Shown here piece by piece: positions 11,288 to 63,860 of a DNA stretch of 64,000 bases; position 1 is the stretch's first letter; each line of letters starts with the position of its first letter. The stretch covers positions 31,225-95,224 of the IMG/VR virus record IMGVR_UViG_3300035703_000041; one strand, given 5' to 3'. Source of the stretch: a virus. The translations under genes and the position numbers were made by a program. The notes under the pieces were generated by a model that was given only the letters and a program-made list of their open reading frames with translations, made no database searches and was not told where the DNA came from.

Positions 11288-11434
11288 ATGCCAGAGAAAA
11301 AGTTTAATGATGACACTGCTAAAACTATTTGGAACAAACTAAAAGGTAAGGATGTTCCACAAGACTACAGTGATAAAGACAAGGAAGATATTGTTAAACG
11401 ATACTGGCATAAAGCAATGGAAAGCGAACAGTAG
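11288..11434 (+). CDS. small hypothetical protein (48 aa, not in ORF track)
   Basis: MPEKKFNDDTAKTIWNKLKG...AMESEQ*; its TAG stop overlaps the GTG start of the next gene. Confidence 0.6.
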   Translation: MPEKKFNDDTAKTIWNKLKGKDVPQDYSDKDKEDIVKRYWHKAMESEQ

Positions 11435-11964
11435 TGTTATTAACAGATTACTATAAATCTGTTTTAGAAAAAGAACACGCCAACGGAGAATGGGGTATTG
11501 CTTCTGTTCATTATGCACCACGTGTTGCAAATATGATGAAGCGTTATAATCTAAATGAAGTTTTAGATTACGGTTCAGGTGCAGGCAATTTAGAAAAAAC
11601 ACTAAAAACTATATTACCTGATGTAATTGTTTATAATTATGAGCCAGGTATACCTAAATGGAATATTATTCCAGCACCATGTAAAATGGTTGCTTGTATT
11701 GATGTTATTGAACATATTGAACCTGAGTGTATAGATTCTGTATTAGATGATTTAGAAAGAATTATTGAGGGTTACGCATTTATATCAATTTCTACTACAT
11801 TAGCAAATAGAGTATTAAACAATGGATGGAATGCTCACATTTGCCTAAAAGATCCACAAGAATGGAAAGAAATTTTTGAGAGAAGATTTCAAATAATTTG
11901 CCCTGGAATGTATGACGGCGGTGTAGAAATTGAAATATGCAGGAGAGACAATGAAAATATATGA
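11434..11964 (+). CDS. class I SAM-dependent methyltransferase
   Basis: VLDYGSGAG motif I; CIDVIEHIE. Confidence 0.8.
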   Translation: MLLTDYYKSVLEKEHANGEWGIASVHYAPRVANMMKRYNLNEVLDYGSGAGNLEKTLKTILPDVIVYNYEPGIPKWNIIPAPCKMVACIDVIEHIEPECIDSVLDDLERIIEGYAFISISTTLANRVLNNGWNAHICLKDPQEWKEIFERRFQIICPGMYDGGVEIEICRRDNENI

Positions 11965-12469
11965 GTTAGCAGGTAAACCAACAGTTTTCGTAGATATGGA
12001 TGGCGTGCTTGCTGACCTGTTTAACCACGTTGGTGACATTCACGATGTTGAACATTACAATCAAATGACTGATCAACAGTGGCAAGATTTTTTTCAAAAT
12101 ACTAATGCTTATCACTTGTTTAAGGATTTACCCCCATTCCCAACAGCAAATCGTTTACTACGTATGGTAAAAGGAATGGTTGGTGGATACAAAATTCTTT
12201 CAAGTCCACTTAACTTTGACCGTGAAGGCAGCATAAAAGGCAAGCGTGAGTGGTTAAGTAGGCATATATCTGTAGCCCCAGATGGCGTTATTTTCGAGCA
12301 TGAAAAATACAAATATGCTGTTAGTAACGGTAAACCAAACATATTAATTGATGATTACGGTGTAAACATTAAAAAATGGCGTGCTGCTGGCGGTATTGGA
12401 ATTAAGTACCAAGCAGATGAAAACAGTTTAGAAGAATTAGCGGAACAGTTAGCGGCTGCTTTGAAATAA
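11951..12469 (+). CDS. HAD-family 5'(3')-deoxyribonucleotidase-like protein
   Basis: FVDMDGVLAD, ILSSP, LIDD motifs; start moved to MKIYEL at 11951 (AGGAG SD). Confidence 0.85.
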   Translation: MKIYELAGKPTVFVDMDGVLADLFNHVGDIHDVEHYNQMTDQQWQDFFQNTNAYHLFKDLPPFPTANRLLRMVKGMVGGYKILSSPLNFDREGSIKGKREWLSRHISVAPDGVIFEHEKYKYAVSNGKPNILIDDYGVNIKKWRAAGGIGIKYQADENSLEELAEQLAAALK

Positions 12470-12491
12470 ATATTACATAGGAACTTATGTA

Positions 12492-14177
12492 ATGAAAATT
12501 AAAGAATTATTAGAGGGTGTTGGACGCATTACACCATATAATCAAACAGTTGATGTAGGGCCAAACGAAATCAAAAAACAAGCAGCTAAGTTTGGATTTA
12601 AAGTAGACAAGGACGGTTATCCTCCTGTTATAGGCAACGGACGCTACGCTAAAAATTCCACCCCTAACAAACTAATGAATCTTGGACTTACTGAATCAAA
12701 AATTATTGAGGCTAGAGGTGTAACTGCTCGCGTTGCTGGTGAGCGATACATAAATGATAAAGATCCAAATGATTACAGAGTTATCCAATCCATTAAAGTT
12801 ATAAATCCACCAAAAACTCCAGCATACAAAACCGCTGAAGAACTTAAAGCTGCTATCAAGGAATATCTTCCTAGAAATGCTAAAACAGTCGATGACAACA
12901 AACATGGCAGTGATTTAAGAGCTGCAATCATAGCAAAAGTTGCTACACCATCAAATGATGTTGAGTATTGGATAAGGTATATTAAAGCAGTACCTCCAAC
13001 GGGTGTACATCAAATGTGGCAAACACTACGCGGATACAGTTATGATAATCCAAGATCAGCTAGTGAAAAGATTAAACTTAAACCATCTGATTTAATTAAA
13101 GATGAAAGTCCTAAAAATCTAAAACAACTAGCAACAGAAATTATGTCTTCTATCGAAGCAATGGGTGATGAAGAGTTGACAAACGCAATGCGTCAAGCAG
13201 TTAATCATGCCGTACAAGGTAAAGACATTGTAATTAAAGATGGTGTTAAATTTGCTACAGCTATATCTAAATATGCAGGAGAATATTTAGGTGCAATGTC
13301 GCTGATGACCGGTAAGATCATGAAAGGTGATCTTAAAAAAGCTATGGAAGCATTAGACATTAATACATTAAAAGGCAGTAAAATTACTTTCCCACAAGCA
13401 AGATTGCAAGAACTATATGACAGCACTTTAACAACATCAGATGGCAAAATATTACAAATAAGCACCAAGATGCATAAAACCGGTTCTGGATCAAGTTTAA
13501 GCGGTGTAGTAAAGCAACTTAATGATGATATTGAATCACAGTATCCAAAAGGTGCTGCTGTTTTACGTATGCTTGGTGGTGAATCAAGTGGTGCAGCTGG
13601 TGTGTTAAAAGCTGCTCAAGAGTACAAATTAATTAATGCCTCAGATGTAAAAGAAGTAATGAGTATGGATCCTGGTTCTAAAGATCCAACAATTATTAAA
13701 AGTCCAAGATTGCAAAGATTATTTTCAGAACAAAAAGTTAGTGCTGGAGCACCAAAAAGATTTGGTTACACAATACGCAGACATTTAATGGCTGCTATTG
13801 CAAACAGGACAGTTAAAACAATTAATGAAGATAATGAAGTATTAACTGCACTTATGCTCGCTTTAAACAACAACAATTATTTGCAAGTTGTTACTGAAAC
13901 ATCTATAACTGGCAACGATGTTACTATGACTTTTTATACAAAATATCCAACAGAATTTAGTGGCAAACCTAAATTACAAAATGCTGCTTTTTGGAGCACT
14001 GGTGAACAAGGTAGAATAGCATTCTCATTACCTACAACTAATGTTGATGTTGAAGTTGAAGAACCAGAAGTAGAAGTTCCAGTAAAAAGAAAACCAGTAC
14101 CAATTACAGCAAGAAATCCTAAATTAGATAAATCAAAGTCAGCCCCGAAAGGAGTTGGTCGCGGTAAGAGGGATTAA
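12492..14177 (+). CDS. two-part protein with MKIKELLE leader; C-terminal part possibly PD-(D/E)xK nuclease-like
   Basis: TAAATA at 12467; linker LTESKIIE|ARG; LYDS...LQISTK resembles the D...(E/Q)xK nuclease pattern. Confidence 0.55.
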   Translation: MKIKELLEGVGRITPYNQTVDVGPNEIKKQAAKFGFKVDKDGYPPVIGNGRYAKNSTPNKLMNLGLTESKIIEARGVTARVAGERYINDKDPNDYRVIQSIKVINPPKTPAYKTAEELKAAIKEYLPRNAKTVDDNKHGSDLRAAIIAKVATPSNDVEYWIRYIKAVPPTGVHQMWQTLRGYSYDNPRSASEKIKLKPSDLIKDESPKNLKQLATEIMSSIEAMGDEELTNAMRQAVNHAVQGKDIVIKDGVKFATAISKYAGEYLGAMSLMTGKIMKGDLKKAMEALDINTLKGSKITFPQARLQELYDSTLTTSDGKILQISTKMHKTGSGSSLSGVVKQLNDDIESQYPKGAAVLRMLGGESSGAAGVLKAAQEYKLINASDVKEVMSMDPGSKDPTIIKSPRLQRLFSEQKVSAGAPKRFGYTIRRHLMAAIANRTVKTINEDNEVLTALMLALNNNNYLQVVTETSITGNDVTMTFYTKYPTEFSGKPKLQNAAFWSTGEQGRIAFSLPTTNVDVEVEEPEVEVPVKRKPVPITARNPKLDKSKSAPKGVGRGKRD

Positions 14178-19740: not shown

Positions 19741-21170
19741 GTTAATCTTACAAATACCTGCCCACTTACTTGATAGTAAGGATTACCAACAGCAACCCCA
19801 GCTAATGCAGCGGCTGCATCGTCAGCATAAGGACCAGGGATACCTGGCCATGCAGTTGATTGTACAGTATTATCAGGGAAAGTTAAATTACCATCAGTCT
19901 TAAAAGTCCACTCATACGCAGTAAGTTCAATGCCAAGCCCGCCGGTTGTGATTTTTACTTCACCTGAATCAGCCTCATTGAATGTTGCTATTGCTACATT
20001 GCCCATTTCAAAAGCATTTTCGCCCCAACCTAGCTGCATGCCGCCGCCAACGCCTGAGGTTGTAAATACCAAAAGTTCAGCAGGGGCTTGTAGCATCAAG
20101 GTTCCGTTAACAGGAGCATAATTTCCAATAGGAGATATAGTTAAATTCCCTGGTAAACTAAAGGAACCATCCTCACCAAATGTCCAACGTCTTAGTGTGC
20201 TGTCTGTTAGGTTGATGTCTATGTTGATAGCACTTTCGCTACCAATGTTGCCAGGTATGGTTAGATCACCGTCACTACCAAATATCCAAGACTTGCTGCT
20301 TTCACTATTTGCATTGGTTAGAACAGCAAACCCATCGTCGCTGAATACTACCAGTCCAGGTTCGTCTTCACTTATCCTGCCATTGCTGCTTCCAGGAAAA
20401 ATTAAATCACCACTTGAATTAAATGTCCAAGTCTTATACAATGCGCCAAATAAAACTGTTTGTGGCCCATCATCAAATCCTGCGGTAATATCTTGATCGA
20501 CATGTATTTGCCAGTTGCCAGCATCTTGTTGGATATCTGTAATCGTAGCAGTTATCGGTGTTCCCCATGCTGTGGTTACAGCACCACCTATTTGAATATT
20601 TGATCCCAATGCAGGATAGGTGTTGTCGTTGATAAACAAACGCCAAACATTGCCCGGAGGCACAAGTTCATCTACAGTGTGTACCGTGATATTCTCTATT
20701 AATGGATTTCCTATTGATATAAATGCATTAGTTGAGCTATTAATATTAACCGCGCTATTTGTGTCACTTACTTTTACATGGTTTATTTCACCACCGAGAA
20801 ATAGATCGGCTGTGCTTTGATCTATGCTCCCACCTGCTCTGATATGTATGTGACTAGGTTCACCACCAGTAGGTTCTATCACAAGATATTGATCGCTGCC
20901 GTTTCTCCTAAGTTCTTCGTCAGGAACCAGTTTAATAGTATCAAATTCATTGCCGTCACTGCTGTCTGCATCACCACCATAGAAGGTGCCTTTGTTTAGG
21001 ACCTTGCTTTTTACATGTGTTCGAATGCCGTCAAACATCAATAATTCTAATTTACCGTTGTCACCAACATAAAGAGCAAGTTCACCATAGGGACGGATTT
21101 CGTCTGTGCTAGTATTGTTAGCGCCGTCACCTTCAATTTGACTTACATTTATTCTTCTTACTCTCGTCAC
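19737..21170 (-). CDS. tail fibre / virion structural protein
   Basis: Four W.F..DG.L..P repeats; FPDNTVQSTA motif; acidic and Gly-rich. Confidence 0.65.
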   Translation of the reverse strand: MTRVRRINVSQIEGDGANNTSTDEIRPYGELALYVGDNGKLELLMFDGIRTHVKSKVLNKGTFYGGDADSSDGNEFDTIKLVPDEELRRNGSDQYLVIEPTGGEPSHIHIRAGGSIDQSTADLFLGGEINHVKVSDTNSAVNINSSTNAFISIGNPLIENITVHTVDELVPPGNVWRLFINDNTYPALGSNIQIGGAVTTAWGTPITATITDIQQDAGNWQIHVDQDITAGFDDGPQTVLFGALYKTWTFNSSGDLIFPGSSNGRISEDEPGLVVFSDDGFAVLTNANSESSKSWIFGSDGDLTIPGNIGSESAINIDINLTDSTLRRWTFGEDGSFSLPGNLTISPIGNYAPVNGTLMLQAPAELLVFTTSGVGGGMQLGWGENAFEMGNVAIATFNEADSGEVKITTGGLGIELTAYEWTFKTDGNLTFPDNTVQSTAWPGIPGPYADDAAAALAGVAVGNPYYQVSGQVFVRLT

Positions 21171-21185: not shown

Positions 21186-24059
21186 TTAATCGTTGTTGTA
21201 TTCTGAACCGTAGAATATCTTAGCAGTCCATTGTATCTTAAGTGTATTGACCTCACCATCTAATCTACGGTAGCTGATAGTGCCTTCATTCTGCACGAAC
21301 CACAAGTCATCATTTTCGCCATCTGTTGACCCGCTTGATACCTCAGTGTGAGTGATGTTCTCTTCACCATCGTCATCTACTATGTGTATGGTTCCTATGA
21401 TGGTAGCATCGCCAGTAAACGCATGATAATCAATTATTGCACCGCGGAAGTCGTCACTGCCACCTGAAAGATCATTCTTATCCCACCATACAACAGGTTC
21501 AGCACCTGTTGAAACTCTATAATAAACCGTGTCTCCCTGTGTGACGGAAACATAACGATCACCTATGTGGTATAACTGAAGGAAGTTATTTGTGCTGCTG
21601 CCCACTACCTCAGCTGGATACCAAGTGCTGTTATCGAGACTAAATTCCAATTCATAGTCTGTTGGTCCATCGTAGAGAGTGTATAGATCTACATCCCAGT
21701 TTATGAATGTGTAATAATCGTTTCTAGTGTCAAAAGCAGTTGCCGCTACTGATGTTTGAGTTATTCTTTCAGTTACTGATACTTGTTTGTAACCAACAGC
21801 TTCTTCAATCCTGCGTTCGTCTGTTGCTCTAAGTTTAACGCGACCCAACCCTTCTGCGGATTTTAATATAGTACCATCAACAAATTTGATACCTTCATTT
21901 AGTTTAGTTCTATCTATCTCATAACGTAGATAACTAAAACCGCCTCCACCTCCTTGTGTCCAGCTTAACCAATATATACCAAAATATTGATCAGTGTCAG
22001 GAATATACATAATTGCTTTACTACCAGGGACTTTGTTACCTAACCCGCCGTTACCATATGCTTCATAAAAAGGAAGATAAGTTCTATCTTCCAAATTAGT
22101 TAAGTCATCCCACCCAGCAATGTTCCACAATGTTCCTAGAGGGCTTACATCTGAGTCCCATCCGTTTTCTCTGTACGGGTTATAGATGCCGTTGTTGGCA
22201 TCTCTAGTTATACCAATTTGTAAGGTTGAGTCATCGTTTTCTACGAAAGTATCTATCAAATTGCTATTATCAGGTTTTAGGAAATAGTTTGGATTAGTGA
22301 TTTGAGTTCTTGTGTAAGCAAATGATCCACCGTTATTTTGTCCCCAATCAGTAAACTCAAACTTGTAATACTTGTCGTTTATTGTGTCGTGCATTACAAG
22401 CTCAGCTTCAAGAATATTATTACCAACTTGGTTGTTAAGTGCTGAACGGAATGTAGTATAACTTCTAGATTCTAAATTTAATAAGTCTCCCCAACCATCG
22501 TTGTTCCATTCAGTGCCTAGAGGACTTAGATAAGTGTTATTGTCATACTCAATTTCAGCTTCTATATTATACAATGCTTGGTTACTACTGCGAGCGAGAG
22601 TTAAACCTGTATCTATCTCATCAGTTTGAGAACCATCTGCTGTTCTTGTAAATTCAAAAGGTTCACCTAAGACTGCTGCTTGCACAATAAGTGGATTGTT
22701 TGTTAGCTCTAGATAAGGTTGCGAAGTACTGCCGCCTCCTCCAGTAATAACATTGCCATCTACTAATAAATTACCTGTATTATCTATACTTAAAGCAACA
22801 TTGCCCAAGTATATTGTGCTATTGCTTACATATAAATCTTTCCATGGACGATCAATAGTACCTAAACTATGTTGAGGGGTTAAGTCTGGGCCTTCTATTA
22901 CACCTGGTAATAAATCTCCATCAAAATAAACATCCCCAGTTCCATCAAACAAAGTAGTGTGGAATTCATTTGTCGCTCTATCAACACGGGAAATTCTTAT
23001 ATCTTCAAAATTCATATTGATAGCTAATAATCCGTCTTCTGTTGCTATTTTACTACCAACAGTTGGTACTCTTAATTCGCCATCACCTAAAAATCTCCAA
23101 GCTTTACTTGGATTATTTTGCCATTGTGTTTGAATAAATGGACCAACAGCATCAATACCAATAAAGCTATCTAAATCATAACTTGCTAACTCAACATAAC
23201 TATTGGCTGCTGCTCTTATGTCTAAGCTATGTTGTCCTGCGGGATCATTAGGATTGCCTTGTTCTCCGTACCAAATTTCTAAACGTGGCCCGTCATTTAA
23301 ATGTGTTAGATCGTTAAATCTAATAAATCCTCCATCCCCAACATTGTGATCGGGGTCTGTTGAATTGTCTTCAAATATAATACTTTGTGATCTAAATCTA
23401 AATTCTAAAGTATCTAAACTTGTTTCTATTAAATTGTTAGAAACGTTTAAATTACCAATAGTGATATTTGATACCACGTTGCTAAATTCTATTCCATTTT
23501 CAGTGCTATTAACTTTAAGCAACAAACCTGCTTGGCTAGCAAAGCTATCAGGTGTTTCACCAATATTTGTAAATGTTATGTTTGGGACTCCATCTATAGT
23601 AGATGTTGCTGTTGGATTATAGTTCCAAGCATCTTCAATTGTAATTGGAGTAAATGCACCATAGTTATCATCAAGGTATAAAATTTCACCTGAACTTACG
23701 CTACTACCATCATCAGGATCAACTAAACGAGCAATTAGATGATAAAAACGATGTTGAAGATATCTTAAATCTTCTTCAGTAAATGTAATTGTAGCTACAC
23801 CAGAAGCTGGTGCAGTAATAGTAGCAGTTTTAGTTACAAAATGCTCTTTAGTTTCACGATCAACAATTTGAACTTGAACATCATAATTAGTCAAGTTCAC
23901 TACTTTTTGATTTACGCTAAAAACAACTAACCTAAATTGATTAGCAGTTCCTTTGTAAAGCATAATAGGCTGTTGATAAGCCATACGCCAATTAGTACCT
24001 GTTGTATTAGTACCAGTTGCGATTACGGGGTTATAACTGAAGGCATATATAGTTTGCAT
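21186..24059 (-). CDS. tail fibre / baseplate-attached structural protein
   Basis: N-terminal BppU-like beta domain, LGTIDRPWKDLYVSNSTIYLG fibre motif, duplicated SPLGT.WN..GW.DL.NLE.R.Y module. Confidence 0.65.
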   Translation of the reverse strand: MQTIYAFSYNPVIATGTNTTGTNWRMAYQQPIMLYKGTANQFRLVVFSVNQKVVNLTNYDVQVQIVDRETKEHFVTKTATITAPASGVATITFTEEDLRYLQHRFYHLIARLVDPDDGSSVSSGEILYLDDNYGAFTPITIEDAWNYNPTATSTIDGVPNITFTNIGETPDSFASQAGLLLKVNSTENGIEFSNVVSNITIGNLNVSNNLIETSLDTLEFRFRSQSIIFEDNSTDPDHNVGDGGFIRFNDLTHLNDGPRLEIWYGEQGNPNDPAGQHSLDIRAAANSYVELASYDLDSFIGIDAVGPFIQTQWQNNPSKAWRFLGDGELRVPTVGSKIATEDGLLAINMNFEDIRISRVDRATNEFHTTLFDGTGDVYFDGDLLPGVIEGPDLTPQHSLGTIDRPWKDLYVSNSTIYLGNVALSIDNTGNLLVDGNVITGGGGSTSQPYLELTNNPLIVQAAVLGEPFEFTRTADGSQTDEIDTGLTLARSSNQALYNIEAEIEYDNNTYLSPLGTEWNNDGWGDLLNLESRSYTTFRSALNNQVGNNILEAELVMHDTINDKYYKFEFTDWGQNNGGSFAYTRTQITNPNYFLKPDNSNLIDTFVENDDSTLQIGITRDANNGIYNPYRENGWDSDVSPLGTLWNIAGWDDLTNLEDRTYLPFYEAYGNGGLGNKVPGSKAIMYIPDTDQYFGIYWLSWTQGGGGGFSYLRYEIDRTKLNEGIKFVDGTILKSAEGLGRVKLRATDERRIEEAVGYKQVSVTERITQTSVAATAFDTRNDYYTFINWDVDLYTLYDGPTDYELEFSLDNSTWYPAEVVGSSTNNFLQLYHIGDRYVSVTQGDTVYYRVSTGAEPVVWWDKNDLSGGSDDFRGAIIDYHAFTGDATIIGTIHIVDDDGEENITHTEVSSGSTDGENDDLWFVQNEGTISYRRLDGEVNTLKIQWTAKIFYGSEYNND

Positions 24060-37782: not shown

Positions 37783-38194
37783 GCTGCTAGCGGCTGCGCT
37801 GTTTACATTTGCGTTTATTGCTCCTGCCCAAGCAGGTTGGGTAGCCGTAACTGTAGACATTAGCGAACAAAAGATGATTGTACAAACAGAAGATGGAAGC
37901 AAAGAAGTCTATCCTGTTAGTACAGCAGCAGGTCGTAAGGTAACCCCAACTGGAGAGTTCCAACCATACCTTATGCGTAGGATGCATTATTCAAGTCGTT
38001 ACAATAATGCGCCAATGCCGTTTAGTATTTTCTACAGCGGCAACTATGCAATCCATGGAACTGAGCATATTAAAAAGCTTGGGCGACCAGCAAGTAAGGG
38101 CTGTGTGAGATTGCATCCAGAACATGCAGAACGATTGTTTAGCATGGTAAAAGCAGTAGGTATGGATAATACCTACATTAGGATCGTACCCTGA
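37769..38194 (+). CDS. L,D-transpeptidase (YkuD family) with signal peptide
   Basis: YAIHGT...LGRPASKGCVRL catalytic motif; signal peptide ending AQA; start moved to 37769 (AAGGA SD). Confidence 0.9.
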   Translation: MLWNKLLAAALFTFAFIAPAQAGWVAVTVDISEQKMIVQTEDGSKEVYPVSTAAGRKVTPTGEFQPYLMRRMHYSSRYNNAPMPFSIFYSGNYAIHGTEHIKKLGRPASKGCVRLHPEHAERLFSMVKAVGMDNTYIRIVP

Positions 38195-38466
38195 ACGAAA
38201 TAGAATACATTATTGAAGAAACTCCAGTCGAGGCCAATTGGTTTCGGCTGGAGTTGCCATTTAAACGTGCAGAAGGTCTATACAAATGGCGCCAAGGAAA
38301 TGATAGGCTACACAAAATTAAAGAATTTATGACTAATGAAGGTTATCGCATTAATATAGATTTCAAGATAGAACCCATGTATTATTACGACAGTATTGTA
38401 ATATTTCTCTCCCCAAGGATTGAGAAGTATGCAAGTATGATAATTTTAAAATGGGATCCTAAATGA
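38191..38466 (+). CDS. hypothetical protein of the short LRW/LKW-ending family; probable CTG start
   Basis: Open frame extends back to CTG at 38191, which overlaps the upstream TGA and has AGGA 7 nt upstream; ends ASMIILKWDPK. Confidence 0.55.
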   Translation: MNEIEYIIEETPVEANWFRLELPFKRAEGLYKWRQGNDRLHKIKEFMTNEGYRINIDFKIEPMYYYDSIVIFLSPRIEKYASMIILKWDPK

Positions 38467-41237: not shown

Positions 41238-41436
41238 TGATTTTGAAAATAGATATAAGGATTGGCATCAAAAAATCAGTTTCTTAAAAAGTGGCATTCG
41301 TATTGCTGCTTGTCTAGGAACCATTATAATTTTAATGTTGTATGGAGTTCATGACATCATATCAATTTCAGTACTGTTACTATCTATTGGACTATTGTTA
41401 GCTGAAATTCTTGGAATTTTTGAGGAATGGATTTAA
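41227..41436 (+). CDS. small membrane protein
   Basis: Two hydrophobic segments; AAGGAG SD. Confidence 0.7.
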   Translation: MSTNDFENRYKDWHQKISFLKSGIRIAACLGTIIILMLYGVHDIISISVLLLSIGLLLAEILGIFEEWI

Positions 41437-50244: not shown

Positions 50245-50421
50245 ATGATGAGTGATAAAAAGATGGTCAAGCTTAATGTAGAAGGCATTAATGCTGAGAT
50301 TGAAGAAGATCTAATACAAGATGCAATGGCAATTCATGGTATTGACATTGTTAAAGAAATGACCGAAGTATTACAAAAAGAAACCGCTATTGAAAAGGAA
50401 AGAACAAATGAGCTAGGTTGA
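50245..50421 (+). CDS. small protein resembling a fragment of a gp23-type major capsid protein (not in ORF track)
   Basis: TAAGGA SD; LIQDAMAIHGIDIVKEM. Confidence 0.55.
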   Translation: MMSDKKMVKLNVEGINAEIEEDLIQDAMAIHGIDIVKEMTEVLQKETAIEKERTNELG

Positions 50422-52135: not shown

Positions 52136-52219
52136 GGTCCAATATAATCTATTGACATTGTCTGTAGATGTGTTAAAAGTGTAATTGTTAATTAGCTAAC
52201 TGATTGGGAGATACAAAAT

Positions 52220-53341
52220 ATGGCTAAGACTGATAAGAACGCTAATGCTATTAGCGAAGTACGTACCGTTACGTCTGCAGAAGCGCGTAACCTTATTAAG
52301 ATTGCCGCAGTGCGGCGTAAGCGTCCCATTTTCCTTTGGGGACCTCCGGGTATTGGTAAGTCCGAACTTGTTGCCGATATCGGTACTGAGATTGATGCGC
52401 TTGTAATTGACTTGCGTATGGCACTACTTGATCCAACTGACCTGCGTGGTATTGGTTTCTATAACCCCAACACCAACACAATGGATTGGGCGCCGCCTGT
52501 TGACCTTCCTACTGCGGAAATGGCAGCTAGGCACAAGTATGTCATTTTGTTCCTTGACGAAATGAACTCTGCTCCGCCTGCTGTACAGGCTGCTGCATAC
52601 CAGCTTATTCTTAACCGGCGTATTGGTCAGTATCGTCTGCCCGACAACGTGGTAATTATTGCTGCTGGTAACCGCGAGACTGACAAGGGTGTTACTTACC
52701 GTATGCCTGCTCCGCTTGCTAACCGTTTCGTTCACTTCGAGATGCGCGTTGACTTTGAAGCTTGGCACACTTGGGCAGTTACGCATAACGTTCACTCGGA
52801 CGTAATTGGTTATCTGTCCCAGCACAAGGGCGACCTGTTCGACTTTACTCCAACTAGTTCTTCTCGTTCGTTTGCTACTCCGCGTAGCTGGACGTTCGTT
52901 AGCGACATCCTGCAGGAGCAGATGTCAGACAAGGAAGTGACCGACGTTATTGCTGGTACCGTAGGCGAGGGCATTGCCCACAAGTTTATTGGTCACCGCA
53001 AGTTCTCTGGTCAGCTTCCAAAGGCTGAGGACGTAGTTGAAGGTAAGGTTAAGGACCTTAAGGTGCAGGAAATTTCCGCACATTACACCCTTATGATCAA
53101 TCTCTGCTACGAGCTTAAGGAGCGTTTCGAGAACAACTCCAAGAAGGCTGACGACAAGTGGCACTCTAACGTAGACAACATGCTGCGTTACATTATGGAC
53201 AACCTCAGTGCTGAGCTGACCATTATGGGTATGCGTACTGCGGTAATGACCTACCGTCTGCCAATTGCTGCTCAGAAGCTTAAGAACTGGGATGAGTTCA
53301 ACAAGAAGTACGGCAAGTACATTCTCGCCGCTGCTGAGTAA
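52220..53341 (+). CDS. MoxR-family AAA+ ATPase
   Basis: WGPPGIGKS, LFLDEMN, AAGNR, PAPLANRF, TPRSW; TTGACA at 52152. Confidence 0.92.
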   Translation: MAKTDKNANAISEVRTVTSAEARNLIKIAAVRRKRPIFLWGPPGIGKSELVADIGTEIDALVIDLRMALLDPTDLRGIGFYNPNTNTMDWAPPVDLPTAEMAARHKYVILFLDEMNSAPPAVQAAAYQLILNRRIGQYRLPDNVVIIAAGNRETDKGVTYRMPAPLANRFVHFEMRVDFEAWHTWAVTHNVHSDVIGYLSQHKGDLFDFTPTSSSRSFATPRSWTFVSDILQEQMSDKEVTDVIAGTVGEGIAHKFIGHRKFSGQLPKAEDVVEGKVKDLKVQEISAHYTLMINLCYELKERFENNSKKADDKWHSNVDNMLRYIMDNLSAELTIMGMRTAVMTYRLPIAAQKLKNWDEFNKKYGKYILAAAE

Positions 53342-53356
53342 GCATCCACAATAGTT

Positions 53357-53383
53357 GGAGCGGGGTACCCAATCCCCCGCTCC
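53357..53383 (+). terminator. GC-rich hairpin after the MoxR gene
   Basis: GGAGCGGGG / CCCCGCTCC; no U-tract. Confidence 0.5.
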
Positions 53384-53461
53384 TGGTAAGTTGTCCTTGG
53401 GAGGTTTGGGACGACAGTGGTGAGGCGATTGGTTGGGGCTATTCATCACAAGGTATTCATA

Positions 53462-53827
53462 ATGGCAAACAGGTATAAAAAAATTACTGATCCAGATGGG
53501 AATCACATAGATACCTTCTCTACTAGAGAACAAGCCTTTCTAGAAAAACTAGATGGTCGTAATCCACTTTACAAACATTATAAGTATCGTTTCACTGTTA
53601 GTGGCAAAGAGTTACCTTCTAAATTTTTAAATTGGATGGTAAACAACTTTGGTCCACCAACAAGTTATGGAATGGCTAAACATTATGTTAAATGTGGACA
53701 AGGTTTAGAAAATGTACCTTGGGTTCATTATAACGAAAGAAGTTATTGGAATCACCACCACATTTATTTCAATCAGGATTGCGAAGTATTAGTTCGTCTT
53801 AACTTCATGCAAGGCAGGACGTTTTGA
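53462..53827 (+). CDS. hypothetical protein (short paralog array)
   Basis: WMVNNFG...HIYFNQDCEVLVRL; start at ATG 53462 assumed. Confidence 0.65.
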   Translation: MANRYKKITDPDGNHIDTFSTREQAFLEKLDGRNPLYKHYKYRFTVSGKELPSKFLNWMVNNFGPPTSYGMAKHYVKCGQGLENVPWVHYNERSYWNHHHIYFNQDCEVLVRLNFMQGRTF

Positions 53828-54051
53828 GACTTGTCCTCAATAGTGATCTTTGGAATAAAATTTACTACACTTTAGGACGCGATGCACTTAACAGTCGTAC
53901 CGGCAGGTATGAAATGGAAAAGTGGTTTAAAGAAAATCACAACATAACAATCAACACATTTCCAGATGGTCGTTGGAAAAGTGTTGATATTGATGACGAA
54001 GACCTTGTAATGATAATGCTTAAAATAGGAGCACCACATGACGTTATTTGA
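53824..54051 (+). CDS. hypothetical protein (short paralog array)
   Basis: EKWFKE...DEDLVMIMLK. Confidence 0.65.
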   Translation: MRLVLNSDLWNKIYYTLGRDALNSRTGRYEMEKWFKENHNITINTFPDGRWKSVDIDDEDLVMIMLKIGAPHDVI

Positions 54052-54274
54052 AGATTTTGATATTTGGTGGAAGATGCCTAAGTATAAGGACGTTGAAATT
54101 CCTGCAAAGGAGTTTAGTGATGTTGAGATTAAACAGCGCAATGGATCCAACAAAGGATGGCCTGGTCCCGAGGATAATGTTCACTATTGGGTTGAACTTG
54201 AAAATGGCATGGCTGTTGGTATTATTACTCCAAAGAAGAAACCAGCTACGTTTCCATTTTATAGAATGGTGTAA
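54038..54274 (+). CDS. hypothetical protein
   Basis: AGGAG SD; WPGP..NVHYWVELENG. Confidence 0.65.
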   Translation: MTLFEDFDIWWKMPKYKDVEIPAKEFSDVEIKQRNGSNKGWPGPEDNVHYWVELENGMAVGIITPKKKPATFPFYRMV

Positions 54275-54738
54275 TGACAAACAACCACAGAGATAATCGT
54301 GGGGCTGGCACAGGAGTTATCCTTGCTGGCTCCAAACCATTTGCACGTGGTATTTGGGACGTTTACGAAACAACCAATAATCATATTGGATTATTTGAAC
54401 GTAGCTTTTGGTTACAAGGGAATGATAAATGGCCTAGCAACGTTGGTACCCGCAATATTTTAAGTGAAGCACTGGATGACTTTGCTCGGTTTGTTGATGA
54501 AAATTTCCAAGACAATTTGATAATGCTAGAATGGACTAATATTCGTGTTATGGGCGGTATCGGATCTATTGATGGTAAACAAATTGCTGGCTCAGTATAT
54601 TTAGAAGAAAAAGCAAGAAAAGCTAAAGGCATTGTTGACGCTTATGAAGATACCCCAAGAATAATGGGCTATGAACTACGAGTTAGCGAACGCGATGCGT
54701 TTACTTTTCTAACTTTATGGAAGGGTTATGATGGATGA
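54274..54738 (+). CDS. hypothetical protein (short paralog array)
   Basis: Ends ERDAFTFLTLWKG. Confidence 0.7.
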   Translation: MTNNHRDNRGAGTGVILAGSKPFARGIWDVYETTNNHIGLFERSFWLQGNDKWPSNVGTRNILSEALDDFARFVDENFQDNLIMLEWTNIRVMGGIGSIDGKQIAGSVYLEEKARKAKGIVDAYEDTPRIMGYELRVSERDAFTFLTLWKGYDG

Positions 54739-54982
54739 GTATATATCAACGGAAGATGAATTAAATCGAGTTTGGCGTAGATATTACATGCAACGATTCT
54801 ACGAAGAACCTACTCTATGGAATCTTAATTATGCTCAAATTGATCGCAGAGGGTATAAGGCACGTTGTTTTGAAGATTGGTTATATGATCAAGGCATTAG
54901 TGTAATTCAACGAAACAGAAAACGTTATATGCGATTTTTTGATCGCAACGAAGCAACAATGTTTATATTGACATACCTATGA
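54728..54982 (+). CDS. hypothetical protein (short paralog array)
   Basis: Ends FFDRNEATMFILTYL. Confidence 0.7.
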   Translation: MMDEYISTEDELNRVWRRYYMQRFYEEPTLWNLNYAQIDRRGYKARCFEDWLYDQGISVIQRNRKRYMRFFDRNEATMFILTYL

Positions 54983-55200
54983 CAGAAGACATGTCGTTAA
55001 ACGATTACCTTAAAGGTATTAAGCGTATGCATTGGCATATTGTTCGTGTACCATCTGGTAACAGTTATCATCTAATGGAAAGATGGCGAGAAGAAAATAA
55101 TTTTGGAGATTGTATATTCTTAGGAATGCATGGTGAGAACGTTACATACTTATTTGAAAGAGATCAGGACGCAGTTATGTTTGCGTTGAGGTGGGGATGA
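54979..55200 (+). CDS. hypothetical protein (short paralog array)
   Basis: Ends FERDQDAVMFALRWG. Confidence 0.7.
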   Translation: MTEDMSLNDYLKGIKRMHWHIVRVPSGNSYHLMERWREENNFGDCIFLGMHGENVTYLFERDQDAVMFALRWG

Positions 55201-55514
55201 TCTGGCCTTTCTCTCTGCCACCAAGAATAGATGCTACCAGGCAATTAAACATTCCAATTGATTGGGCGTATAGTGAGTACAAATATGTTTTTCGTATAAA
55301 CTGGAATTATCGTTTTTTATTTCGTGCTAACGATCTAAGACAAGAATTAGAGCAAGCATGTATGCAAAACTTTGCATATTATGTATTTGATCGTGTAATT
55401 TATGATTATTGGAGCAAGCGTTGGTTCTCTAATTCAATTGGTGGCGGAGACGAAATTTTTATCGTTACAAATTATGATGCTGGTGTTACATTATTACAGT
55501 TGAGGTGGTCATGA
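55197..55514 (+). CDS. hypothetical protein (short paralog array)
   Basis: ATGA-coupled; ends VTLLQLRWS. Confidence 0.7.
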   Translation: MIWPFSLPPRIDATRQLNIPIDWAYSEYKYVFRINWNYRFLFRANDLRQELEQACMQNFAYYVFDRVIYDYWSKRWFSNSIGGGDEIFIVTNYDAGVTLLQLRWS

Positions 55515-55708
55515 AAGAATTGCCATTAGGATTGTACGGAAAAAACGATGCTGTTGCTACAAAAGCAAATAGGGATGAAGTCGTTGCATGGTGTGTAGAA
55601 AATAAAATTGGTGCTTTTTTCTATGGCAAGTATTTGGTCAACGGGAATGATTATTGGATTGTATCCGATGATGAACACCGTGTAATGTTTATGTTGAGGT
55701 GGTCATGA
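55511..55708 (+). CDS. hypothetical protein (short paralog array)
   Basis: ATGA-coupled; ends DEHRVMFMLRWS. Confidence 0.7.
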   Translation: MKELPLGLYGKNDAVATKANRDEVVAWCVENKIGAFFYGKYLVNGNDYWIVSDDEHRVMFMLRWS

Positions 55709-55959
55709 TACATCACTGGCGTCGAGACGAAGGCGGCGGTTATTTTGAGCCAAACGTAAAAACTGCTTGGCGTTGCATCATCTATGCTAGAGATTTCAAT
55801 TTGGATTTAGAGCGATGGTTCTTGGATCAAGGAGCCGTAGATGAGGTTGACTACGATTTCAATAAACGCTATAATTCAGGAGACCCAGCATATTTTATTT
55901 CAATTTATCGAGAAGATTTAGCAACTGCATTTTTGTTGAGATGGAATAATGAAAATTGA
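55705..55959 (+). CDS. hypothetical protein (short paralog array)
   Basis: ATGA-coupled; ends EDLATAFLLRWNNEN. Confidence 0.7.
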   Translation: MIHHWRRDEGGGYFEPNVKTAWRCIIYARDFNLDLERWFLDQGAVDEVDYDFNKRYNSGDPAYFISIYREDLATAFLLRWNNEN

Positions 55960-56293
55960 AGTTAAAGAATTTGAATTTAATGGTCTACGATTTTTTATAT
56001 CTAAGCATCCTATCAACACGAATCACCGTAAAATTTGGTCCGAAAGTAATGTTAGTCCAACTGAAATGAAAATAGTATGTAAAGATTTAGGCGACAAACG
56101 TTGGATGTGTAGAGCAGAAGTGCCGGCAGAGCAAGCTCGAGAGTTTGAGTCTTGGGTAGAGGAAACTATGAGTGAACGTTGCCTAATCAGCAAAGAATTT
56201 GAACATGATCCAGATGGCACACTAAGACGTATCTACGAAGTTCGTGGCGGAGATGTTAGTGACAGAACAATGTTAATGTTGAGGTGGAAATGA
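55949..56293 (+). CDS. hypothetical protein (short paralog array)
   Basis: Ends SDRTMLMLRWK. Confidence 0.7.
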   Translation: MKIEVKEFEFNGLRFFISKHPINTNHRKIWSESNVSPTEMKIVCKDLGDKRWMCRAEVPAEQAREFESWVEETMSERCLISKEFEHDPDGTLRRIYEVRGGDVSDRTMLMLRWK

Positions 56294-56610
56294 AATTAGA
56301 TAAAGTAAAAGTTGAAGCAAAGACGAGAACGTTATCAGCCAATTACACTGTTGAACAGTCTGAAGAGATTGAACACATTCTTGGTGACGAATTACAAAAA
56401 GAGATTGATAATGAAGTAATGAATTCAATTCTTGGACCTACACTAAGAGAAAGAGGTTGGTATCCTATTGTATTAAAAGATACATATTGGGCGGATATTC
56501 CAAAAGAATGGATTGCAGGAAATATTCAATACGAATATAGTTGCTTTGGTAGTTATTGGTATTTTGCAAATCAAGCAGACGCTACTGCATTTGCATTAAA
56601 ATGGACATAA
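56290..56610 (+). CDS. paralog-array protein with an N-terminal gp23 major-capsid-like fragment
   Basis: KLDKVKVEAKTRTLSANYTVE...ILGDELQKEIDNEVM; ends DATAFALKWT. Confidence 0.7.
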   Translation: MKLDKVKVEAKTRTLSANYTVEQSEEIEHILGDELQKEIDNEVMNSILGPTLRERGWYPIVLKDTYWADIPKEWIAGNIQYEYSCFGSYWYFANQADATAFALKWT

Positions 56611-56611
56611 C

Positions 56612-56815
56612 ATGGCACTTTGGACTTTCTGTGATGATTTGGACACACCAGAACTTGGCATTTGTTTAAGCATGGATTGGTGGGACAAAAATGGCAACAC
56701 TGTAAAAGAGTGGTTCCAAAATGAAGGAGAAGGTGTTGGTTCCGTTGTAAGCGATCACATGATTTTTGTTTACCCAAATAAAAGAACGCTTTTTTTGCTA
56801 AGATTTGGACCTTAA
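56612..56815 (+). CDS. hypothetical protein (short paralog array)
   Basis: Ends KRTLFLLRFGP. Confidence 0.65.
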   Translation: MALWTFCDDLDTPELGICLSMDWWDKNGNTVKEWFQNEGEGVGSVVSDHMIFVYPNKRTLFLLRFGP

Positions 56816-56854
56816 ATTGATTAATCAAATCAAACACTTAGCATGGTGCTGGAT

Positions 56855-56882
56855 TTGACATTTTAACAGTTGATGCTATAAT
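56855..56882 (+). promoter_or_regulatory. sigma70-type early promoter
   Basis: TTGACA-16-TATAAT; AGGAG SD downstream. Confidence 0.8.
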
Positions 56883-56907
56883 TACTACATTAATTAGGAG
56901 ATATCTA

Positions 56908-58176
56908 ATGCACGTTTATATGGCTAAGAAGAAGAAAGATATTGCAAAGTGCCTGCCTTATGACGCGAAGCGTGACGCACAGGCACGTGACCGTCTTATC
57001 CAGGCGCGCGTTAAGATGCTTATGACCCAAGACTTTTGGGGTAAGATTGCTACACGTATGAAGCTTATCAATGCTGACGAATGGTGTGCTACACTAGCCA
57101 CTGATGGTCGTAATTTTTATTACAACTCCGCATTTGTTCTATCGCTTAAGCACATTGACAAAGTAATCTTTGGTTTTGCTCACGAAGTGCTGCATTGCGT
57201 ATATGATCACATTGCGCGTACTGGCAGCCGTGATCGCCAGCTTTCCAACATTGCACAAGACTATGTAATTAACGCTGATCTTGTTCGTCACCGTATTGGT
57301 CAGAAGATTGATGAAATTGACATCATCTATGACGACAAGTATTATGGGTGGGCATGGGAAGCGGTCTATGATGAACTAATGAAGAATGTTAAGTTCATCA
57401 ACGTTGAAGACCTTGCTGACATGCTACTTGACGATCACCTTGAGGAAGGTGAAGATGATGGTGATGGCAAAGAAGGTGACAAGGATAGCGTAAGCCGCAA
57501 GCGTCCTGTTATCAGCCGTGAGGAGCGTGAGAAGCTTAGGGACGAGTTCCGTGAAGCTATCCTGCAAGCTGCACAGGGCGCAAAGCCTGGTTCGCTGCCG
57601 TCAGGTGTTGAACGCATGGTAAAGAGCATGACTGATCCCAAGCTGGATTGGCGTTCGCTTATTACTATGAAGATCCCTTCGCTTGCTAAGAACGACTATA
57701 GCTACCAGCGCCCCAACAAGAAGTATCAGTACTCCGGTATTGTTATGCCTGGTCTACAGCGTGAAGAAGCAATTGACGTTTGTATTGCTATTGACACATC
57801 CGGTTCTATCAGCCAGCAGCAGCTCGAAGAAGTGTTGAGCGAGATTGTTGGTCTTATGGACATGTATGCGGAGTTTACGCTACGCATTTGGCAGTTTGAT
57901 ACTGGCATTTACGGTTACGAAACTTTCACTAAGGACACTGCTGGTGACCTTATGCGTTATGAAATTAAGGGTGGCGGTGGTACTAGCTTTGCTGCTAACT
58001 GGGACTTCATGAAGAATGAAGGTATCGAACCCAAGCTGTTCATTATGTTTACGGACGGTGAAAGCTTTGATGGTTGGGGTGATCCAGACTATCAGGACGA
58101 TATGCTTTGGATTATCAACAATCCGTATAACAAGAGCATTGAACCTCCCTACGGTGCGTGGGCATACTACGAGTAA
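56908..58176 (+). CDS. metallopeptidase-vWA protein (DUF2201-like), probable MoxR partner
   Basis: TLATDG, HEVLH (HExxH), AQDYVIN; vWA DTSGS, GGGGTSF, FTDG. Confidence 0.9.
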   Translation: MHVYMAKKKKDIAKCLPYDAKRDAQARDRLIQARVKMLMTQDFWGKIATRMKLINADEWCATLATDGRNFYYNSAFVLSLKHIDKVIFGFAHEVLHCVYDHIARTGSRDRQLSNIAQDYVINADLVRHRIGQKIDEIDIIYDDKYYGWAWEAVYDELMKNVKFINVEDLADMLLDDHLEEGEDDGDGKEGDKDSVSRKRPVISREEREKLRDEFREAILQAAQGAKPGSLPSGVERMVKSMTDPKLDWRSLITMKIPSLAKNDYSYQRPNKKYQYSGIVMPGLQREEAIDVCIAIDTSGSISQQQLEEVLSEIVGLMDMYAEFTLRIWQFDTGIYGYETFTKDTAGDLMRYEIKGGGGTSFAANWDFMKNEGIEPKLFIMFTDGESFDGWGDPDYQDDMLWIINNPYNKSIEPPYGAWAYYE

Positions 58177-58182
58177 GCAACA

Positions 58183-58206
58183 GGGCGGGGTAGAAATATC
58201 CCGCCC
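58183..58206 (+). terminator. GC-rich hairpin after the vWA gene
   Basis: GGGCGGG / CCCGCCC. Confidence 0.55.
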
Positions 58207-58464: not shown

Positions 58465-58734
58465 ATGAAGACTTACTGGACAGGTTGGTATAAGGACGGT
58501 ACTTCAGATAAGATTTGGGGTATCCTAAAAGTAAATGATGGATATTATAACTTTTGGTGCCGTCGTGGTGCTAAAATGCAGTTCAAAGCTATTGATTATC
58601 CAAAGTATGGTCACAAGGAAAAGAAAGGATATCGTGCAATTAGCGATGCTCAACTTGAAACAATTTATCCTGGATTCTTTGATGAAGCACAAAGCAATCT
58701 TGTGTTTGCACTAATGGCGGATAAGGTGCGATGA
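58465..58734 (+). CDS. WGR-like domain protein
   Basis: GTSDKIW...FWCRRG...KEKKGY. Confidence 0.6.
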   Translation: MKTYWTGWYKDGTSDKIWGILKVNDGYYNFWCRRGAKMQFKAIDYPKYGHKEKKGYRAISDAQLETIYPGFFDEAQSNLVFALMADKVR

Positions 58735-59186
58735 ACCCTGCTCCAGTAAGTTTTATGTTTGCCTACGGCATGAATACTAATCTAACAAGCATGATGCTTA
58801 GATGTCGTAATGCAAAATGTCTAGGGAAAGCTTACCTTCCCGATCACACATTACAATTTCGCTACCACTTGGATATTGCTCCAAGCAAGTTTGATGTTGT
58901 ACAAGGAGTTCTTTGGCAACTTGATTACGAAGATTTCAAAGTGATCGATCAACTTGAAGGATACCCAGATTACTACAGTCGTTACATTTATCAACCCTAT
59001 ATTGATAATTACTATAACACGTTTCCTGCTTGGACTTATGCAATGTGGAACAAGGACTCATTTGAATATCCTGATGAACGTTACTTGGATTTAGTAATTG
59101 AAGGGTATCGTCAAAATGATATCGACGTGCAGCAACTTAATAACGCGCTACAACAAGTTGAGAAGTATAAACAGGAGACAATGTAA
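58731..59186 (+). CDS. gamma-glutamylcyclotransferase (AIG2-like)
   Basis: FAYGMN, VQGVLW, IDQLEGYP..Y. Confidence 0.85.
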   Translation: MNPAPVSFMFAYGMNTNLTSMMLRCRNAKCLGKAYLPDHTLQFRYHLDIAPSKFDVVQGVLWQLDYEDFKVIDQLEGYPDYYSRYIYQPYIDNYYNTFPAWTYAMWNKDSFEYPDERYLDLVIEGYRQNDIDVQQLNNALQQVEKYKQETM

Positions 59187-62773: not shown

Positions 62774-62980
62774 ATGAGAAACGATCTAATTGAAGCAAGC
62801 CGCAAGCATTTTGAGGCTCACATTGAAAAGCATAGAATGAATGTTGAAGTTATTCTAAGCAACCCAACTGCTATCCATGGACATGTAGATGTTATGGATG
62901 CAATTGAAAAAGAACTAGCTGAAATGGCGGATTACGCAGATAAGCTAGAAATGCTCACTACATATTTTAAGGTAAGCTAA
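62774..62980 (+). CDS. hypothetical protein
   Basis: GGAG SD; 68-aa helical hairpin. Confidence 0.75.
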   Translation: MRNDLIEASRKHFEAHIEKHRMNVEVILSNPTAIHGHVDVMDAIEKELAEMADYADKLEMLTTYFKVS

Positions 62981-63573
62981 TGCCAAACTTAGTTCCAATT
63001 GTACTAGAGAAAACTGCTAACGGAGAACGTAGCTATGACATTTATAGCCGACTGCTTAAGGATCGTATTGTCATTATGGATACGGATGTTAACGAGCACA
63101 GCGCCAGTCTCATTGTGGCACAAATGCTTTTCCTTGAAAGTGAAGGCCCTGGTGATCCAATTAACTTTTACATTAACAGCCCAGGTGGTAGCGTAACAGC
63201 AGGCATGGGTATCTATGATACCATGCAGTTTATTAAGAGCCCAGTACACACATATGTCTTTGGACAAGCTGCAAGCATGGGATCGCTACTTGCACAAGCA
63301 GGTGAACCTGGACACCGTTATATGATGCCACATGCGCGACACATGATCCATCAGCCAAGTGGCGGTGCTCGTGGTATGGTAAGTGACATTGAGATTACTT
63401 ACAAGGAAATCCAACGTCTTAAGGAAGAGCTTACACGTATCTATGTAACACATAATAGTGCAGGTAAAACTTTTGAGCAGCTTACAAAAGATATGGATCG
63501 CGATACTTGGATGACTGCTGAACAAGCAGTTGAGTATGGATTAGTAGATCAAATTGTAAAGAAAAGAGTATGA
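62980..63573 (+). CDS. clpP: ATP-dependent Clp protease proteolytic subunit
   Basis: ERSYDIYSRLLKDR, YINSPGG, AASMG (Ser), MIHQP (His), DRD (Asp). Confidence 0.97.
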   Translation: MPNLVPIVLEKTANGERSYDIYSRLLKDRIVIMDTDVNEHSASLIVAQMLFLESEGPGDPINFYINSPGGSVTAGMGIYDTMQFIKSPVHTYVFGQAASMGSLLAQAGEPGHRYMMPHARHMIHQPSGGARGMVSDIEITYKEIQRLKEELTRIYVTHNSAGKTFEQLTKDMDRDTWMTAEQAVEYGLVDQIVKKRV

Positions 63574-63860
63574 GCTTATACTTAGATAACAAAGTTGATC
63601 CAATCGCAGCAGCAGGTGGAAGAGAGTTGGACTTCATTCCAAAACACTTCCATTGTGTGTCCCTATCTAATGGCTATTATGATCAAAGATCTATACGAAA
63701 TTGGATTTGGAAAAATCAAAGTGGTAGATTTGCTATTGCTACTAAAGTATCAGAGGACATGCGTAACGAGCTATTTGCTGCTTTTGAAGATTCAGGCGAA
63801 GCAATTATGTTTACACTTATTTTACCTACACTAAAGTCAGACTTTTTTGATGACTTTTAA
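63570..63860 (+). CDS. hypothetical protein
   Basis: IRNWI...GRF...FEDSGEAIMFTL, similar to the short-paralog family. Confidence 0.7.
   Translation: MSLYLDNKVDPIAAAGGRELDFIPKHFHCVSLSNGYYDQRSIRNWIWKNQSGRFAIATKVSEDMRNELFAAFEDSGEAIMFTLILPTLKSDFFDDF

Follow-up and report, generated by a model that had tools for sequence, protein, structure and literature searches.

Small genes with dual-coded junctions in a probable cassette array between the MoxR and vWA genes of an uncultured freshwater jumbo phage

The last 64 kb of the 95,224-bp IMG/VR virus record IMGVR_UViG_3300035703_000041 (record positions 31,225 to 95,224; called the window here and numbered from its own first nucleotide) contain a row of 12 consecutive open reading frames (ORFs), B1 to B12, which lie head-to-tail on the plus strand at 53462-56815, between the gene of a MoxR-type ATPase and that of a DUF2201/vWA protein. 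The row is probably a polycistronic set of small accessory genes, with dual-coded junctions that couple translation, gain and loss of whole cassettes, and insertion into the MoxR-vWA spacer of one clade. The genes of this array and its two flanks are as follows, with protein lengths in amino acids (aa).

B1, 53462-53827, plus strand: 121 aa; framework gene, present in all four relatives; motifs NWMVNNFGP ... DCEVLVRLNF; 1.5 bits.
B2, 53824-54051, plus strand: 75 aa, TTG start; probable divergent family member and variable gene; 15.6 bits, E 0.004.
B3, 54038-54274, plus strand: 78 aa; small protein unrelated to the family.
B4, 54274-54738, plus strand: 154 aa; C-terminal end DAFTFLTLWKGYDG; motif-level likeness only.
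B5, 54728-54982, plus strand: 84 aa; family member; C-terminus EATMFILTYL.
B6, 54979-55200, plus strand: 73 aa; family member; relatives have no ortholog at the same slot.
B7, 55197-55514, plus strand: 105 aa; family member; framework gene.
B8, 55511-55708, plus strand: 65 aa; minimal family member.
B9, 55705-55959, plus strand: 84 aa; family member; tail RWNNEN, with the next ATG 4 nucleotides (nt) past the Trp codon.
B10, 55949-56293, plus strand: 114 aa; family member; framework gene.
B11, 56290-56610, plus strand: 106 aa; gp23-type capsid fragment (residues 1-48) fused to the family domain.
B12, 56612-56815, plus strand: 67 aa; last member and framework gene (75-77% aa identity); end LLRFGP with AGA as the Arg codon and no coupled gene after it.
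Upstream flank, 52220-53341, plus strand: MoxR-type AAA+ ATPase (Pfam AAA, AAA_3 and AAA_5).
Downstream flank, 56908-58176, plus strand: DUF2201_N metallopeptidase-like plus DUF2201/vWA protein.

The domain matches thus bear out the flanking MoxR and vWA genes named in an earlier, sequence-only reading of the locus, which had also counted about 11 paralogs between them; statistically this number is too high. In a one-genome profile search, B5 to B12 were firm members of one protein family (E 1e-7 to 5e-16) and B2 was a probable one; B1 and B4 share motifs with the family only (hhalign E 0.06 for B1, and E 0.018 across 13 columns for B4, whose orthologs are 39-40% identical), and B3, the most conserved gene of the array (83-87% aa identity), is unrelated. 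The family profile, named A2 and built from 36 members, matches 16 places in the 95-kb record. Nearly all members are 55-115 aa long, with the domain at the very C-terminus, and the canonical form reads W(A/C)KENCPSY ... hxFxF..EKDATLFALRW. A word-indexed search found 33 metagenome proteins, and an exhaustive profile search among 1.84 billion proteins returned 1,998 cluster representatives at E <= 0.001; the closest Atlas clusters are 88-100% viral. No model in Pfam, PHROGs or NCBIfam matches the array members or canonical metagenome members. Against GenBank phages, neither tblastn with a canonical member nor megablast with the array gave a match, and the family profile detected no member in T4, RB43, KVP40, P-SSM2 or Aeromonas phage 65. 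A literature search on the motif or on such arrays found nothing relevant.

The record has a CheckV completeness of 26%, which marks it as a fragment of a jumbo phage. By its MoxR, the closest named relative is the Pseudomonas jumbo phage PA5oct, whose ATPase is 53% identical at the aa level. In PA5oct, a one-record search found two single family members, EST35_0247 (E 3e-7) and EST35_0274 (E 0.009), both annotated as hypothetical; the text of the omics paper on PA5oct does not time gp247 or gp274 at the level of single genes. Sequencing runs containing DNA of the stretch are for the most part freshwater metagenomes. The phage is an uncultured freshwater jumbo phage, of a clade distantly related to PA5oct, whose capsid protein is of the gp23 type.

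Further members had been proposed in dispersed positions of the window, at 38191, 41427 and 63570. The last two are weak candidates (12.5 bits at 41427 and 13.1 bits at 63570), the first (ORF 38254-38466) scores 1.8 bits, and none reaches E <= 0.1 genome-wide. A second array was found upstream of the window, at genome positions 11368-12691 (locus L003), with five clear members and the same style of junction (TTGAGGTGG or TCGTGA), interrupted by one unrelated 57-aa ORF. Two more weak family matches occur at genome positions 20837-20956 and 21638-21697.

The C-terminal family motif closes with Leu-Arg-Trp (LRW), and it is at this end that consecutive genes meet. The five junctions quoted in the sequence-only reading are exact: GTTGAGGTGGggATGA at 55185, GTTGAGGTGGtcATGA at both 55499 and 55693, GTTGAGATGGaataATGA at 55935 and GTTGAGGTGGaaATGA at 56278.

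B6/B7 junction, 55185-55200, plus strand: dual-coded; same design at 55499-55514, 55693-55708 and 56278-56293, and a variant at 55935-55952.

Its claim that one junction of about 16 nt holds the last residues of the protein, a GAGGTG(G) resembling a Shine-Dalgarno (SD) sequence, and an ATGA overlap of stop and start was likewise borne out, the codons being TTG AGG TGG; at the junctions, the stop and start codons overlap and the SD-like sequence lies 4-9 nt upstream, inside the upstream gene. In a search for direct repeats, 55499-55514 and 55693-55708 proved to be identical 16-mers, which enclose B8 as a cassette of 194 nt. The sequence TTGAGRTGGNNNTGA occurs four times in the 64-kb window, each time within the array, while 0.00 occurrences were expected from 100 shuffles. 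The observation is real and far beyond chance.

The choice of codons at the junctions is biased. Genome-wide, only 7.7% of all Arg codons are AGG and 13% of all Leu codons are TTG, and in the window's genome the family Arg is AGG in 6 of 10 cases (p 3e-5), the Leu before it being TTG in 8 of 12 (p 2e-5). When non-redundant members from this genome and from the fetched relatives were counted, AGG was used in 14 of 18 genes whose stop is overlapped by the following start in the form NN(A/G)TGA, against 3 of 17 otherwise (Fisher p 6e-4). The predicted enrichment of AGG over genome-wide usage was thus found as a strong bias to this rare codon where the next start is coupled, and the last gene of each array, which ends in LLRFGP and has no coupled gene after it, uses AGA. 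Starts led by an SD are general in this phage: among non-family genes, an SD core at -18 to -5 is present in 47%, against 12% in the background. Over all genes, AGG accounts for 14 of 46 Arg codons in the last six codons, against 86 of 1,252 elsewhere, family genes contributing at most six of the 14. Burying the next SD in the end of a gene is thus a general habit in the window's genome, of which the family is an extreme case because its conserved residues happen to spell an SD.

The gene content and order of the locus are not fixed among relatives, as comparison with four related IMG/VR contigs showed (MoxR 91-92% and vWA 83-88% identical). Array orthologs are 36-90% identical, against 83-88% for vWA, and thus evolve faster than the flanks. 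The ortholog map of the window and three of the relatives is given below, where u stands for a gene that has no match in any other of the arrays and 8' for one that resembles B8 distantly (37% identical).

Window: 1-2-3-4-5-6-7-8-9-10-11-12
L006: 1-3-4-8'-7-X-10-11-12
L007: u-1-3-4-5-X-7-8-u-u-9-10-12
L008: 1-2-3-4-5-X-7-u-10-11-12

B2 is missing in L006 and L007. The closest counterpart of gene X (EFPSEEDATLFLLRWG) within the window's genome lies in the other array. Non-orthologous genes have ends of 25-28 nt that are 92-96% identical, on bodies that are 35-50% identical at the protein level.

At the level of near-identical strains, contigs from four DNA metagenome runs of four studies were aligned to 52200-58200. 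A 5,421-nt contig of run X2 (depth 27.5) passes from 55498 directly to 55693 and so skips 194 nt, exactly the B8 unit; as 16 letters fit on either side, the joint falls within the identical 16-mer. The main strain of this run also lacks B2 (joint from 53809 to 54037, depth 25), which is kept by a minor contig of depth 6.5. In run X3, a 4,973-nt contig (depth 25) matches 55144-55516, 55498-55708 and 55695-56438 in turn. Between these pieces, at the junctions on either side of B8, it has extra DNA of about 157 letters and of about 626 letters, the junction being matched on both sides each time. From their lengths, 176 and 640 nt, the added units would be a single cassette and a pair of cassettes joined through ATGA overlaps. 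Joints with sides shorter than 30 letters were disregarded as unreliable (X6, 55200 to 55684 and 52707 to 57055; X9, 55524 to 55681 and 55709 to 56404). The earlier proposal that the junction acts as recombination microhomology, allowing accordion-like gain of genes, therefore stands in part: single-cassette indels have their joints in the repeat in X2 and X3, recombination or slippage is the proposed mechanism, and the B2 indel lies outside the LRW repeat. As a separate observation, runs X3 and X6 have a different sequence of 156 letters, and thus of much the same length, in place of the 3' half of B11 (56438-56601), which looks like segmental replacement within a cassette.

The place of the array relative to its flanks was surveyed in 80 fetched metagenome loci, with MoxR 33-76% identical. 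Where a locus has both genes, the distance from MoxR to vWA is mostly below 400 bp, and family genes were found between them in the window's clade, L023 and L026 only. The usual spacer has a GC-rich stem-loop with a T-run followed by TTGACA-17-TATAAT, a composite that resembles the promoter-early stem-loop (PeSL) cassettes of T4-type phages and is conserved across distant jumbo phages. Spacers of about 100 bp with an intrinsic-terminator-like stem-loop and a near-consensus promoter occur at twelve loci (L019, L029, L034, L037, L039, L041, L044, L045, L048, L050, L051 and L056). In the window, a stem-loop without a T-run (53358-53385) lies directly 3' of MoxR, and the array stands between it and a promoter.

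Structured leader, 53357-53450, plus strand: conserved, about 95 nt, three hairpins, upstream of B1; hairpin 1 (53358-53385) is the GC stem-loop without the T-run.
Promoter, 56855-56882, plus strand: perfect sigma70-like promoter, TTGACA-16-TATAAT (with TG), before the vWA gene; kept in L006, L007 and L008 and also present in the spacers of distant relatives.

Because MoxR and vWA are directly adjacent in most fetched relatives holding both, the array is an insertion into the terminator-promoter spacer. Other insertions at the same spot are of 6.7 kb (L057) and 1.1 kb (L047), and PA5oct carries three membrane-like ORFs and a homing endonuclease there. The MoxR-vWA spot is an insertion hot spot, and nothing found links the family to MoxR or vWA in function. 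No sigma70-like promoter was found between MoxR and B1, and no stem-loop or repeated promoter at the gene junctions within the array, which is probably read through from MoxR. The region lacks the late-promoter motif TATAAATA.

The leader upstream of B1 shows signs of a conserved structure. Hairpin 1 has three compensatory versions of its stem (the window and L008, L006, and L007) around a constant loop, CCCAATCC, and hairpin 2 has one compensatory pair; positions 53357-53450 gave no match in Rfam. In L007, an extra gene sits between MoxR and the leader, which thus stays with B1 when the two are parted from MoxR. The leader may act in cis as a regulatory RNA or serve as a site of processing.

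The shared fold suggested for the ORFs was examined by profile and by structure prediction. B5 to B12 fall into one profile, and AlphaFold models of the canonical member, made with the family alignment (predicted local distance difference test, pLDDT, 86.9; predicted template modelling score, pTM, 0.73), and of B11 (pLDDT 81.6, pTM 0.66; block-mean pLDDT 88-98 from about residue 31) agree in a domain of order beta1-alpha1-beta2-beta3-alpha2. The conserved Trp lies in alpha1, the DAxxFxLRW motif forms alpha2, and the conserved positions of the alignment are hydrophobic. In both models and in the alignments the domain is C-terminal and ends 1-4 residues past the helix DAxxFxL(R/K)W. The domain, of about 60 aa, is predicted to be a ferredoxin-like sandwich without the last strand, and the models make the DAxxFxLRW motif best read as part of its core, not as a free tag. 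The top structural matches were an ACT domain (Z 7.2, root-mean-square deviation 2.3, 61 residues aligned) and RRM domains (Z 5-6.6); those of B11 were weak (KH-like folds, Z 3-4, and secretin-N-like folds, Z <= 4.4).

B11 differs from the other array genes in its N-terminus. Its residues 1-48 match the Pfam model PF07068 (Gp23) with 28.7 bits (cut-off 24.4; E 1.1e-6), over profile positions 136-195 of 376 only, and the full HK97-type capsid fold was not found. Six other members with a B11-type N-terminal extension have weak Gp23 matches in the same region, the sole matches of B11 among PDB sequences are to T4 gp23, residues 253-298, and the B11 subfamily aligns by hhalign with eight gp23/gp24-type capsid proteins at a probability of 96%, confidently over the first 55 residues or so. 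The model of B11 has a disordered stretch, then a 30-residue helix (25-54), then the beta-alpha-beta-beta-alpha domain; by position, we read the fragment as the counterpart of the P-domain strand and spine helix of the HK97 fold. The gp23-like fragment is also present in B11-type genes of three related contigs. Elsewhere in the window, a 58-aa ORF (50245-50421) consists almost wholly of such a fragment (Pfam Gp23 positions 140-185; 19.1 bits, under the cut-off), with counterparts in 65-aa frames of two related contigs (G001 and G003). Derivation of the whole LRW domain from a capsid A-domain was also considered and was rejected for want of evidence, the minimal family aligning with capsid proteins at an hhalign probability of 1% and no capsid protein being among the structural matches listed.

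Taken together, these data fit the following course of events at the locus. Eight or nine of the 12 genes are members of one family, which is very large and known from viral records. Since the protein ends one residue past its last helix, the Leu-Arg-Trp codons fall where the next gene needs its ribosome-binding site; spelled as TTG AGG TGG, they yield GAGGTG(G), and two bases with ATGA after them make the start overlap the stop. Ribosomes that end one gene would then re-initiate on the next. These 15-16 bases form direct repeats along the array, and recombination or slippage between them may drop or add whole genes, after which each remaining gene would keep an intact end, ribosome-binding site and start. 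The products, fast-evolving and variable between strains, would most likely be dispensable binders for host takeover or counter-defence on a common scaffold. In B11, the P-domain strand and spine helix of the capsid protein are present as a copy.

The sequence-only reading had gone further, suggesting that the C-terminal motif may dock onto a shared partner, such as MoxR/vWA or ClpAP, while variable N-termini bind different host targets; docking on these machines is not supported. If the LRW motif delivered variable N-terminal adaptors to such a common machine, the position of the array between MoxR and vWA would make sense, and some family genes do lie close to ClpP.

Weak, divergent family-like ORF, 63570-63860, plus strand: 13.1 bits; directly after ClpP (62980-63573).

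Clear members follow ClpP in 4 of 34 related fetched contigs with ClpP (L126-L128 and L130, at 3615-3932), and a PA5oct member stands two genes past ClpP (EST35_0272/0274). Most ClpP neighbourhoods have no member; the genes close to ClpP give a lead but do not support a Clp tag. The models show the motif, with high confidence, as a terminal helix that is packed, its conserved residues being hydrophobic. In most relatives no family gene separates MoxR from vWA, and the family is also represented at other places of this genome and in PA5oct, both arrays and lone members having unrelated surroundings; a docking tag is the least probable of the readings weighed here. It is also highly improbable that the domain works as an RRM or ACT module that binds RNA or a small molecule and reprograms the host. 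ACT and RRM are its top structural neighbours (Z 5-7), with KH-like folds for B11 (Z 3-4), yet these scores fall in the range of a common arrangement, the last ferredoxin-fold strand is missing, and core hydrophobics are conserved in place of RNP-like or ACT ligand motifs. The capsid fragment suggests another role, in which members, at least those of the B11 subfamily, would act on the pathway of the major capsid protein, as assembly modulators or as decoys for capsid-sensing immunity, through the copied spine-helix segment. The match above the Pfam cut-off, its recurrence in six subfamily members and in three contigs, the hhalign probability and the separate ORF at 50245-50421 all favour this role; yet the match covers only about 50 residues, only one of the 12 array genes has it, and the family domain itself has no capsid similarity. 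We regard a capsid-directed role as very doubtful.

A more serious alternative to a cassette array is that the junction is kept merely through conservation of the last helix together with the general burial of SD sequences, turnover being illegitimate recombination filtered by selection, with no selected device for recombination or cassettes. The enrichment of AGG at the 3' ends of genes generally and the gene overlaps that are common genome-wide agree with this, as do the B2 indel at non-LRW junctions and the conservation of the protein motif across about 2,000 clusters, irrespective of the adjacent gene. It accounts less well for the B8 deletion, with its joint inside a perfect 16-nt repeat, for the X3 insertions flanked by the same repeat, and for the near-identical ends of non-orthologous genes with divergent bodies. 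We consider it somewhat unlikely. The probable reading, that of a coupled cassette array with gain and loss of genes, has to bear several other points. The AGG codon counts take in orthologs and are hence not independent, and four coupled junctions carry AGA, which gives a weaker SD. No RNA run was found to contain the stretch, so that we infer coupling and co-transcription. The fold is a common arrangement, with a best Z (7.2) in the range that the tool calls uninformative. Since neither border of the B2 indel has the LRW sequence, genes can be gained or lost without the junction repeat, and in a gap-free array selection alone would leave whole-gene indels only. A bolder form of the cassette array, distinctly unlikely on present evidence, would make the LRW junction a selected, integrase-free device, in which 15-16 nt act as protein end, ribosome-binding site, start/stop and recombination site. 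Any member could then drop into any array and be expressed at once. The family would serve as a scaffold that diversifies for counter-defence, and pieces of phage structural proteins borne by some members, the capsid spine helix among them, would be decoys.

Parts of this arrangement have known parallels. Translational coupling at ATGA or TAATG overlaps, with the SD inside the upstream gene, is classical in bacterial and phage operons. The array shares with it the overlap of stop and start, a GAGGTG 5 nt before the ATG in the upstream coding sequence, and the rare AGG where genes are coupled; it differs in that the SD lies in the three most conserved residues of the family instead of in arbitrary codons, and in that 15-16 nt recur at each junction as direct repeats. 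The internal-protein (IP) loci of T-even phages encode hypervariable small proteins with a shared terminal targeting motif, which is N-terminal, directs them to the capsid and is cleaved off (Repoila et al. 1994). Both systems have arrays of small proteins that evolve fast, differ in their bodies, share one short motif at an end and are replaced from strain to strain, whereas the LRW motif is C-terminal and a structural helix of the fold. Spontaneous deletions in the rII genes of T4 occur between short direct repeats. The B8 joint in a perfect 16-nt repeat, with one unit removed, is similar, but the repeats of the array are functionally maintained at every gene boundary, so that each event leaves an intact operon.

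The PeSL terminator/promoter cassettes mediate the modular shuffling of hyperplastic regions in T4-type phages (PMC2839356, PMC4122927). As there, close relatives differ by insertion, deletion or replacement of small non-essential genes at points that carry a short, repeated regulatory sequence: the 16-nt junction repeat borders both the B8 deletion and the X3 insertions, and the MoxR-vWA spacer is itself a composite of stem-loop and sigma70-like promoter. In contrast to PeSL, the cassette borders of the array have no promoter or stem-loop, and the repeat is coding and translational, about 16 nt long. With ACT and RRM domains the family shares a two-layer alpha/beta sandwich of beta-alpha-beta-beta-alpha order (Z 7.2 and 5-6.6), and differs in having no sequence similarity, no final strand and no ligand or RNA motifs. 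The PA5oct proteins EST35_0247 and EST35_0274 belong to the same family, with the W..EN helix and the F.F..(E/D)..(D/E)ALMF.L ending, in a cultured jumbo phage, but their genes are single, with YF or QF ends and no AGG TGG junction. With the MoxR-vWA system, neither a conserved co-occurrence of family genes nor a conserved position of these between the two genes was found. As to neighbouring genes, a gamma-glutamyl cyclotransferase-like (GGACT/AIG2) protein is encoded a few genes 3' of the vWA gene (58731-59186).

New here are the setting of the array as an insertion in a spacer, the indel joints seen at strain level and the fusion with a capsid fragment, the last of which is the first concrete lead to function. 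The junctions fuse a coding constraint and a translational signal in one short sequence; repeated at each boundary, it would let phages add, drop and swap small genes with expression unbroken. The natural deletion of a single cassette within a 16-mer makes this idea of evolvability directly testable. The family comprises approximately 2,000 clusters at 50% identity; giving it a name and learning what it does would provide annotation for many jumbo-phage genes now listed as hypothetical.

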